A DNA stretch of 3,405 nt from Enterobacteria phage M. The translations under genes and the position numbers were made by a program. Each line of letters begins with the position of its first letter. The first letter of the stretch is position 1. This document shows positions 90-3,405 of the stretch, one piece after another. The notes below the pieces were generated by a model. It had not been told where the DNA came from. It did no database searches and saw only the letters and a list, made by a program, of their open reading frames with translations. The DNA lies in sequence record JX625144; one strand, given 5' to 3'.

Positions 90-1277
90 ATGTATATTGA
101 TGTTACTTCCCCTGTGTCTGAGACATGGTCCGGTACGTGTACCGTCCATCGCCCTGCGGATAAAGGGGGACCTTACCAGAAGACTATCTCTGGGAAAGTG
201 ACGACTTTATCCTCATCGCGAGCTACTTCCTCGGGAAAGAAGGGAACTGTGGTTATTGCCGGTGAGACGATACCTTGGGCATACCCAAGGCCGTACTCAC
301 GTTGCATTACCCAGCGAACCCCCCTCGGAGGTAGTTTCGAGCTAGTTGTTGACGGTTATCCGGCGACTCTCTTTGGTCGTATACCATCGGAGACGATGGT
401 TACGCCTGGAGGTTCGTCTGTTACCATAAAGAGAATTCCTAATGTAACGGACTTCTCTGGTTTACCAACTATCTCAAGAAACGAACGATCGCGTAACTAT
501 GCGTCGTTCGCCGACTCGTTTAATGACGGGTCGGAACTCGCGAATGCTGCCCTTGAGTTTGGTGACAATATCGCTCTCCTCGCTAATTTAGCGACGAGCG
601 TTATGTACTTCTACCGCGGGGTACGACACGGGTCTATTTCTGATCTTAATCGTGCCTTCGGCGGAGGAAAGATTCGTAGTGTCTCTAAAAATGCGTCTTC
701 ACGCTACTTAGAGTATATCTACGGTATCCAACCCACTCTCGATGACATTCATTCGACCTTTGAGGTACTAAAGAATACTCCTCTGTCGAATCTCATTGCT
801 AGGCGAAAACGCATGTTTACGCTTGACCGTGAGTTCTCCGACGGTGGATTCCGCTTTAGTGGTAAGTTACATCACCAAGTTGGGTGTCATTATTGGTTTG
901 ACTCGCCTGAGCTTCATAATATGAGCTCATTGGGTCTTATCAATCCTGCACTCATTGCTTGGAATGCTGTACCTTACAGCTTCGTACTGGATTGGGTCCT
1001 ACCGATTGGTAGTCTCCTAAATTCGCTCACCGCATATGCGGGTGCGAACTTCATTTCCGGGTGGGATACTCTCTACCTGGAAGGAACCTGTACGTGTGCT
1101 CCTCGTTATTCGTCACTATCGGCCTCCTGGCCGACAGCGTCCTCTCTTATCACGATAAAAGCGATGCGTCGACAGGCCCTTGCTGGGTTTCCCCGGCCGT
1201 TGCCTTTCGTCAAAAATCCTTTATCGACCACTCACCTTGTAAACTTTGCCGCCATGTGGCGTCAGCGTTACAAATAA
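90..1277 (+). CDS. mat: Maturation (A / attachment) protein, 395 aa
   Basis: First long ORF at the 5' end of a levivirus-organised genome. ATG at 90 is preceded by GGAGG (76-80) with a 9-nt spacer; stop TAA at 1275-1277. Size (395 aa) is typical for levivirus maturation proteins. Assignment rests on gene order and size; I cannot verify homology by eye. Confidence 0.85.
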   Translation: MYIDVTSPVSETWSGTCTVHRPADKGGPYQKTISGKVTTLSSSRATSSGKKGTVVIAGETIPWAYPRPYSRCITQRTPLGGSFELVVDGYPATLFGRIPSETMVTPGGSSVTIKRIPNVTDFSGLPTISRNERSRNYASFADSFNDGSELANAALEFGDNIALLANLATSVMYFYRGVRHGSISDLNRAFGGGKIRSVSKNASSRYLEYIYGIQPTLDDIHSTFEVLKNTPLSNLIARRKRMFTLDREFSDGGFRFSGKLHHQVGCHYWFDSPELHNMSSLGLINPALIAWNAVPYSFVLDWVLPIGSLLNSLTAYAGANFISGWDTLYLEGTCTCAPRYSSLSASWPTASSLITIKAMRRQALAGFPRPLPFVKNPLSTTHLVNFAAMWRQRYK

Positions 1278-1304
1278 CCGGCTTTGCCGTCAAAGGTATT
1301 TATT

Positions 1305-1706
1305 ATGCCTCAGCTCCAACCGCTGGTCCTCAAAGACCGTGCAGCTACACCAAAAGATCGTACCTTCTCTCCTTTCAATATTGAAGGAGGCGTTGGCTAC
1401 CTTGTTGAACGTACAGGGATTCCTGCGGGCGATAACACGTTTTCCATCTCCAGCCGTAAAACCGCTGGCGGAAAATACCGTGCTACCATCAAATTGATGA
1501 TGCCCGTGGTAACGACCAACCAATCGGTCAATGGAGTTACGGTTGTAACTTCTGAACGAGTGGCGGTTGCTACTTTGGAATTCCAGTTTGACGCTCGCTC
1601 TACTGAGCAAGAGCGTAAAGACCTGGTTAGCCTGATTCAGAGTTCTCTGGACCCGGCTAAATCTTTAGTCAATGACGCTGTTGTCAAACTGGAAGGCGTA
1701 TACTAA
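1305..1706 (+). CDS. cp: Coat (capsid) protein, 133 aa
   Basis: ATG at 1305 with AAGG (1293-1296) 8 nt upstream; stop TAA at 1704-1706. The ORF track begins this frame at an in-frame TTG (1284), but the ATG with SD is the more plausible start. Length of 133 aa and central position are typical of levivirus coats. The sequence (MPQLQPLVLKDR...FQFDARSTEQERKDL...VVKLEGVY) resembles PRR1/Qβ-type coat proteins as I recall them, including the C-terminal Y. Confidence 0.92.
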   Translation: MPQLQPLVLKDRAATPKDRTFSPFNIEGGVGYLVERTGIPAGDNTFSISSRKTAGGKYRATIKLMMPVVTTNQSVNGVTVVTSERVAVATLEFQFDARSTEQERKDLVSLIQSSLDPAKSLVNDAVVKLEGVY

Positions 1707-1727: not shown

Positions 1728-1741
1728 ACATAGGAATAACC

Positions 1742-1745
<4 letters not shown>
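1728..1745 (+). promoter_or_regulatory. Putative translational operator hairpin spanning the replicase start codon (coat-protein binding site)
   Basis: ACAU(1728-1731) pairs with AUGU(1742-1745), A1732 is unpaired (bulge), GG(1733-1734) pairs with CC(1740-1741), loop AAUAA (1735-1739). The replicase AUG (1742-1744) sits in the 3' arm. The architecture mirrors the MS2 operator (ACAUGAGGAUUACCCAUGU: lower stem, bulged A, GG/CC, A-rich loop). Confidence 0.6.
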
Positions 1746-3304
<1,559 letters not shown>

Positions 3305-3405
3305 CACCAAACTCGCCCGCAAGGGTGCCCCTAACGGGGGGGGTCTCATCACTCCTGATGAGATTTTGTTGTTACGGTAGATTGCTATGCTACCGTAACA
3401 CCCCA
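3305..3405 (+). other. 3' untranslated region with stem-loops: a 5-bp stem with GCAA (GNRA) tetraloop at 3314-3327, an 8-bp stem 3344-3351/3356-3363 (loop CUCC), and a terminal 10-bp stem 3371-3380/3390-3399 (9-nt loop), followed by ACCCCA-3'
   Basis: Inverted repeats read directly: GUUACGGUAG/CUACCGUAAC, UCUCAUCA/UGAUGAGA, and CGCCC/GGGUG with one G-U pair. A 3' terminal hairpin followed by unpaired ...CCCA is the conserved levivirus 3' end recognised by the replicase. A G8 run at 3336-3343 also lies in this region. Confidence 0.7.

Follow-up and report, generated by a model that had tools for sequence, protein, structure and literature searches.

The replicase cistron of phage M begins inside a small hairpin, and the question raised by this locus is whether that hairpin is the site at which the coat protein binds and represses replicase translation. 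The window analyzed, i.e. the whole stretch of 3405 nt in record JX625144, represents the complete levivirus genome of this IncM-plasmid-specific ssRNA phage (genus Empivirus), and a contig identical to it was found in IMG/VR. Based on the sequence comparisons described below, positions 1728-1745 are predicted, with a probability of roughly 0.77, to be the coat-binding translational operator (TR) of phage M. The operator has already been known since the 2012 genome paper and its function is a well-supported prediction: Rumnieks & Tars 2012 (PMC3561173, Fig. 3B) displayed the hairpin as a prediction, inferred a mechanism like that of MS2, GA and PRR1, and grouped the M operator with those of PRR1, C-1, Hgal1 and MS2. 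A literature search for a coat-operator binding or repression experiment on phage M found none. Added here are the invariance of the operator in nine M-like metagenomic genomes, a covariance-model test and an analysis of coat residues. Modestly new among these are the M-like invariance and a lineage-specific Tyr85-to-Val replacement, which occurs together with a 5-nt loop and a shortened stem. If confirmed experimentally, this replacement would provide a data point on coat-operator co-evolution and possibly a further orthogonal RNA tag.

Genome layout and the hairpin at the replicase start

The genes relevant to the proposed regulation are arranged as follows.

90-1277, + strand: maturation gene
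1305-1706, + strand: coat protein gene, the presumed trans-acting repressor (translation identical to AFU61980.1)
1742-3304, + strand: replicase gene, the presumed regulated target (ATG at 1742; homology to PRR1 and other replicases)

Phage M has its published lysis gene at 2991-3104 on the + strand, within the replicase gene; it starts with UUG and encodes 37 aa (PMC3561173). Since this gene does not span the junction of coat and replicase, no coding constraint acts on the 5' arm of the operator, which in M is intergenic. In MS2, GA, PRR1, C-1 and Hgal1 the corresponding arm is under such constraint, the MS2 operator being overlapped by the lysis gene. The published primer CTGGCGCCTTTGGTGGATAC maps to 3072-3091, as stated in PMC3561173, and the U1 loop AUUGCUAUG is present, with the 3'-terminal hairpin U1 at 3368-3402 (+). 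An Rfam search of the genome returned no relevant family and only chance matches to mir-360 and snoR442, the former at 3368-3402 being discarded as spurious (18.8 bits vs a gathering score of 60).

The sequence of positions 1728-1745 is ACATAGGAATAACCATGT, also written ACAUAGGAAUAACCAUGU, and the following parts can be distinguished in and around it.

1728-1745, + strand: predicted operator (TR) hairpin ACAU-A-GG-AAUAA-CC-AUGU (sequence, MFE, pair probability, covariance model, PMC3561173 Fig. 3B)
1728-1731, + strand: 5' arm of the lower stem, ACAU, pairing with 1742-1745 (complementarity; invariant in the nine M-like genomes, non-coding, upstream of the Shine-Dalgarno)
1732, + strand: unpaired (bulged) A at -10 from the AUG (sequence and fold)
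1733-1741, + strand: upper stem GG/CC, 1733-1734 with 1740-1741, i.e. G1733-C1741 and G1734-C1740 (sequence and fold)
1735-1739, + strand: 5-nt loop AAUAA, with A1735 = -7, U1737 = -5, A1738 = -4 and A1739 = -3
1732-1735, + strand: putative Shine-Dalgarno-like AGGA, 6 nt before the AUG and within the hairpin (read from the sequence)
1742-1745, + strand: AUGU, the 3' arm of the lower stem, in which the replicase start codon occupies 1742-1744 (ORF 1742-3304)
1726-1746, + strand: 21-nt block invariant in ten M-like genomes (multiple comparison)

The start codon lies in the 3' arm and pairs with 1729-1731, while A1732 alone remains unpaired in the 5' arm, separated from the loop by two base pairs. 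Both elements had been proposed in an earlier, sequence-only reading of this DNA as an MS2-like operator geometry around the replicase AUG, and sequence and RNAfold agree on it: the bulge at -10 is on the 5' side and in the same register as in MS2. The upper stem is formed by G-9/G-8 with C-1/C-2 in M, compared with C-2/C-3 in MS2. Adenines occupy loop positions -4 (A1738) and -7 (A1735), as also noted in the genome paper (PMC3561173), and the loop of 5 nt has the length found in PRR1, not that of the 4-nt loop of MS2 and GA.

Folding of the 18-mer with RNAfold yielded exactly the predicted hairpin as MFE structure, and it was retained in 46-, 81- and 121-nt contexts, as the same reading had anticipated. 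Mean pair probabilities were 0.92, 0.90 and 0.77 with flanks of 50, 150 and 400 nt, respectively, compared with 0.95 for MS2 and about 0.9 for GA. The hairpin is thermodynamically marginal (-1.9 kcal/mol, z = -0.92, with 40 of 200 shuffles folding equally well), the operators of relatives ranging from -4.0 to -6.3 kcal/mol, and energy alone gives it no significance. In the whole-genome MFE the hairpin is absent, a long-range duplex being present there instead. An outer helix joining 1716-1723 with 1749-1755 in the 46-nt fold was rejected, as its 5' strand is the most variable stretch in the M-like genomes and the changes are uncompensated.

For the bare geometry (a lower stem of at least 4 bp, a bulged A, an upper stem of 2 bp and a 4- or 5-nt loop) the genome contains nine instances, while dinucleotide-shuffled sequences gave 5.0 +/- 2.2. 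Two instances remain in the strict form, in which the first and fourth loop bases must be A, where 0.30 would be expected, or about 9e-5 per position; the test of this form against the AUG was framed after the fact. Because the strict form is this rare, its coincidence with the replicase AUG is unlikely to be due to chance.

Conservation within the M-like clade and across genera

Clustering of coat proteins yielded 17 M-like sequences, from which nine genomes or genome fragments at 89-90% nucleotide identity were recovered. Across the resulting ten M-like sequences 22% of all columns are variable genome-wide, while none of the 18 columns of the hairpin (1728-1745) varies; the neighboring non-coding bases 1707-1727 have 11 variable columns out of 21 as well as an indel. 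Ranked by length, 1726-1746 is one of the top five invariant runs of the genome, and comparison of these sequences shows strong purifying selection on a mostly non-coding element. Part of this invariance could reflect the constraints of a ribosome-binding site. The conservation foreseen in the sequence-only reading was thus observed at 1726-1746, but the covariation it also looked for is missing within the M clade, because the hairpin does not vary there.

A broader comparison covered PRR1, PRRlime, Hgal1, C-1, MS2, GA, AVE017 and, from metagenomes, a dozen genomes encoding homologous coats. It used a relaxed motif in which the 3' arm contains the start codon and an upper stem of 2-4 bp stands above a bulged A. 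Of 21 related genomes, 11 (52%) carry this motif where the replicase start is annotated, compared with a rate of 3.6% at random positions or other AUGs in the same 21 genomes; the remaining ten lack it at the annotated start. Every cultured relative carries it (PRR1, PRRlime, Hgal1, C-1, MS2 and GA), whereas the more distant coat homologues L002-L004, L034, L036 and L038 exhibited no convincing operator at their called starts. A GG/CC upper stem is common to M, PRR1, Hgal1, C-1 (CCAUA-A-GG-GGUA-CC-UAUGG), MS2, GA and AVE017. The bulged A is located at -10 in M, MS2, GA, AVE017 and C-1 and at -11 in PRR1 and Hgal1, with the operators of PRR1, Hgal1, C-1, MS2 and GA each also allowing a valid shifted register. 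The pair directly below the bulge is G-C, A-U, C-G or U-A depending on the genus and is missing in M. The +4 pair is either A-U or C-G between genera in a structure-guided alignment, ten of the 21 relatives being without the motif. A MAFFT alignment of the operators that included M placed both M and Hgal1 in the wrong register and was left out of the pair counting.

A covariance model (R1) was built from the five operators of PRR1, C-1, MS2, GA and AVE017, leaving M out. Its top match in the M genome was 1728-1747 with 13.8 bits (E about 0.02), part of this score coming from the AUG and GGA that any replicase start might carry; the next match reached 9.2 bits. Alignment of M to the model required the deletion of one stem pair and the insertion of one loop base. 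In an 80-kb search of 23 genomes E rose to 0.45 for M and was 2.2 for Hgal1, so that this narrow model supports the ranking within the genome and not significance across genomes.

Closer examination of the individual operators revealed which features M shares with each of them. The MS2/R17 TR (ACAUG-A-GG-AUUA-CC-CAUGU) has the same bulge at -10 and the same G-9, G-8, A-7, U-5 and A-4, and likewise contains Shine-Dalgarno and AUG; it differs in its 4-nt instead of 5-nt loop, its lower stem of 5 instead of 4 bp and its energy of -5.3 compared with -1.9 kcal/mol. The operator of GA (group II; AACAUA-A-GG-AAAA-CC-UAUGUU), annotated in its GenBank record as a potential coat-protein binding site, resembles that of M in the A-rich loop, the tolerance of a purine at -5 and the bulge at -10, but has a 4-nt loop and a 6-bp lower stem. 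PRR1 (CCAUA-A-GG-AGCUA-CC-UAUGG) shares with M the hairpin at the AUG, the bulged A, GG/CC and a 5-nt loop starting with A. In M, however, the lower stem is 4 bp and without a pair between the bulge and the U:A(+1) pair, and the last loop base is preceded by an A instead of a pyrimidine (AAUAA vs AGCUA). Hgal1 (IncH; CAUC-A-GG-AUAAU-CC-GAUG) matches M in its 4-bp lower stem, bulged A, GG/CC and A-rich 5-nt loop, whose first and fourth bases are A, and differs by an extra C-G pair between the bulge and the AUG with the bulge at -11; an alternative fold with a 3-nt loop (GGA-UAA-UCC) is possible for it.

Operators of the Q-beta type consist of a stem of about 8 bp and a 3-nt loop with an adenine as main determinant, and those of the PP7 type have a 6-nt loop with a bulged purine four bp below. 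Both types were rejected for M: its loop is 5 nt and a 3-nt-loop fold is impossible, as A1735 and A1739 cannot pair, while its bulge lies two pairs below the loop and its coat is homologous to that of PRR1, not PP7. According to reviews, the PP7 type represents a distinct binding mode, and operator loops range from 3 to 6 nt.

Coat protein residues and loop recognition

The closest coat protein with a solved structure is that of PRR1 (2vf9/4ang), which is about 50% identical to the M coat (E 5e-36) and shares its pocket residues. A PRR1 coat-operator complex was reportedly described by Persson, Tars and Liljas in 2013, and such a complex is available as PDB 4ANG. Identity between the MS2 and M coats is only about 23%. 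In the alignment MS2 Val29, Thr45, Ser47, Arg49, Thr59 and Lys61 correspond to V29, S46, S48, R50, T60 and K62 of M, and in the columns of the adenine pocket and Arg49 the M residues are the majority state among 134 homologues. The Tyr85 column, in contrast, is Val87 (codon about 1566-1568) in M and in all 15 M-like coats, while 106 of the 134 homologues have Tyr or Phe there. The equivalent PRR1 residue is Tyr86, and GA keeps the Tyr as well; Hgal1 has Ile85, a coat without Tyr like that of M, and AVE017 has Thr. MS2 Asn87 is likewise replaced, by Thr in M. In MS2 the two recognized adenines hydrogen-bond to Thr45 and Ser47, and the base at -5 stacks on Tyr85 (PMC12803234). By this correspondence of residues the adenine pockets appear to be kept in the M lineage and the stacking platform lost.

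Loop recognition in M is probably a variant of the MS2 mode, because of the 5-nt loop, the missing pair below the bulge and the change of Tyr85 to Val. The suggestion in the sequence-only reading that the 5-nt loop implies a different coat-RNA recognition is reasonable in this light, with the loops of PRR1 (AGCUA) and Hgal1 (AUAAU) also being 5 nt long and Val standing in for Tyr85. A more specific version, in which a distinct mode combines the two retained pockets with Val for Tyr85, a 5-nt A-N-N-A-N loop and the loss of the pair below the bulge, is tentative and we regard it as possible but doubtful. The A-N-N-A-N loop is common to the M operator, Hgal1 and a second hairpin at 176-193 described below. 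If this version holds, the M coat and operator would be partly or fully orthogonal to the MS2 and PRR1 pairs and might serve as an RNA-tagging pair.

For the operator as such, binding, repression and the pocket register in M are what we infer by homology with MS2, GA and PRR1. Early in infection the weak hairpin, containing the Shine-Dalgarno AGGA and the AUG, would barely hinder ribosomes, leaving the ribosome-binding site usable. As coat dimers accumulate late in infection, one of them would bind the hairpin, the two symmetry-related adenine pockets of the dimer taking up the bulged A1732 and one adenine of the loop, A1738 or perhaps A1739. A1738 occupies position -4 as in MS2, where the genome paper also places it (PMC3561173), and matches the loop A of Hgal1 (AUAAU) and of the 176-193 hairpin (ACUAU); the alternative, A1739, is the last loop base as in PRR1 (AGCUA). 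Binding of the coat would stabilize the hairpin, block the 30S subunit and shut off replicase synthesis, and the complex would probably also act as a high-affinity nucleation or packaging site. The conservation of coat-mediated repression proposed from the sequence alone therefore finds computational support in the hairpins of relatives, the covariance-model match, the M-like invariance and the coat pocket residues.

Alternative explanations and other RNA elements

Several observations would also fit a hairpin that is nothing but part of the replicase ribosome-binding site, its weak structure tuning initiation without specific recognition by the coat. AGGA, the A-rich spacer and the AUG all fall within the invariant block, the stability is just -1.9 kcal/mol, and the intergenic region between the maturation and coat genes is likewise well kept, with 3 of 28 columns variable in the ten M-like sequences. 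In addition, reviews point out that operator binding is not universal in ssRNA phages: AP205 and Cb5 lack it, and for many MS2-like phages from metagenomes it is doubtful. Such an explanation does not, however, account for the ACAU arm, which is located upstream of the Shine-Dalgarno and is both invariant and exactly complementary to AUGU, nor for the fact that other genera, in which the sequence has changed, show the same complementarity together with a bulged A, nor for the retention of the adenine-pocket residues in the coat, and we consider it unlikely. An entirely functionless chance hairpin is favored by the z score of -0.92, with 40 of 200 shuffles doing equally well, and by the nine occurrences of the bare geometry where five are expected. 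It is at odds with the coincidence with the AUG, the frequency of 52% in relatives against a background of 3.6%, the invariance beside a highly variable stretch and the top covariance-model match, and its probability is close to negligible.

The replicase start could instead be controlled mainly by a long-distance duplex of 1739-1751 with 117-129, near the start of the maturation gene, that sequesters the AUG and makes the hairpin secondary. The replicase start of MS2 is under long-range control of this kind through the Min Jou interaction. In M the duplex comprises 13 bp (one G.U) and replaces the hairpin in the whole-genome MFE; its 8-bp core (1739-1746 with 122-129) is kept in four relatives, including an A-to-G change that keeps a U.G pair. 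Outside this core, however, uncompensated disruptions were observed in three of the four relatives, namely U1747C (C.A) in one and C1748A (A.G) in two, and U1761C (C.A) breaks the extension in all four. The whole-genome MFE is moreover unreliable, and local partition functions favor the hairpin (0.77-0.92). Primary control by this duplex is therefore quite improbable; the local hairpin and the duplex are not mutually exclusive. Finally, the hairpin might bind the coat and yet have been selected for capsid nucleation or genome packaging instead of repression, given that the operators of MS2 and Q-beta are at the same time the strongest packaging signals of these phages and that the hairpin at 176-193, alike in geometry and with a compensatory change, suggests dispersed coat-binding sites. 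A pure packaging signal would not need the position over Shine-Dalgarno and AUG that is conserved across genera, and repression and packaging coexist in MS2, making packaging as the sole selected function very unlikely.

The hairpin at 176-193 (+) is located in the maturation gene (CCAG-A-AG-ACUAU-CU-CUGG) and exhibits the operator geometry of 4 bp, bulged A, 2 bp and 5-nt loop. In the M-like genomes L024 and L025, G182 is changed to A together with C188 to U, a compensatory replacement of G-C by A-U at two third-codon positions, and the element is a candidate second coat-binding or packaging hairpin.

Three further elements were noted in the genome. The longest invariant run among the ten M-like genomes, 56 nt at 1302-1357 (+), extends over the start codon and first 17 codons of the coat gene and holds a predicted hairpin, and its invariance suggests an RNA-level constraint at the coat initiation region. 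A hairpin at 1694-1715 (+; GGCG-U-AUAC-UAA-GUAU-U-CGCC, -8.1 kcal/mol) presents the coat stop codon 1704-1706 in its triloop, and the structure is supported by its A1699-U1711 pair, replaced by G.U in L025-L027 and by G-C in L024; unlike in MS2, this region of M is without a lysis gene. The maturation gene also contains, at 273-291 (+), a perfect hairpin without a bulge (CCUUGGG-CAUA-CCCAAGG, -11.6 kcal/mol), in which relatives preserve the stem but vary at the second loop base (A, G or U), and which represents the second-best match to the operator model.
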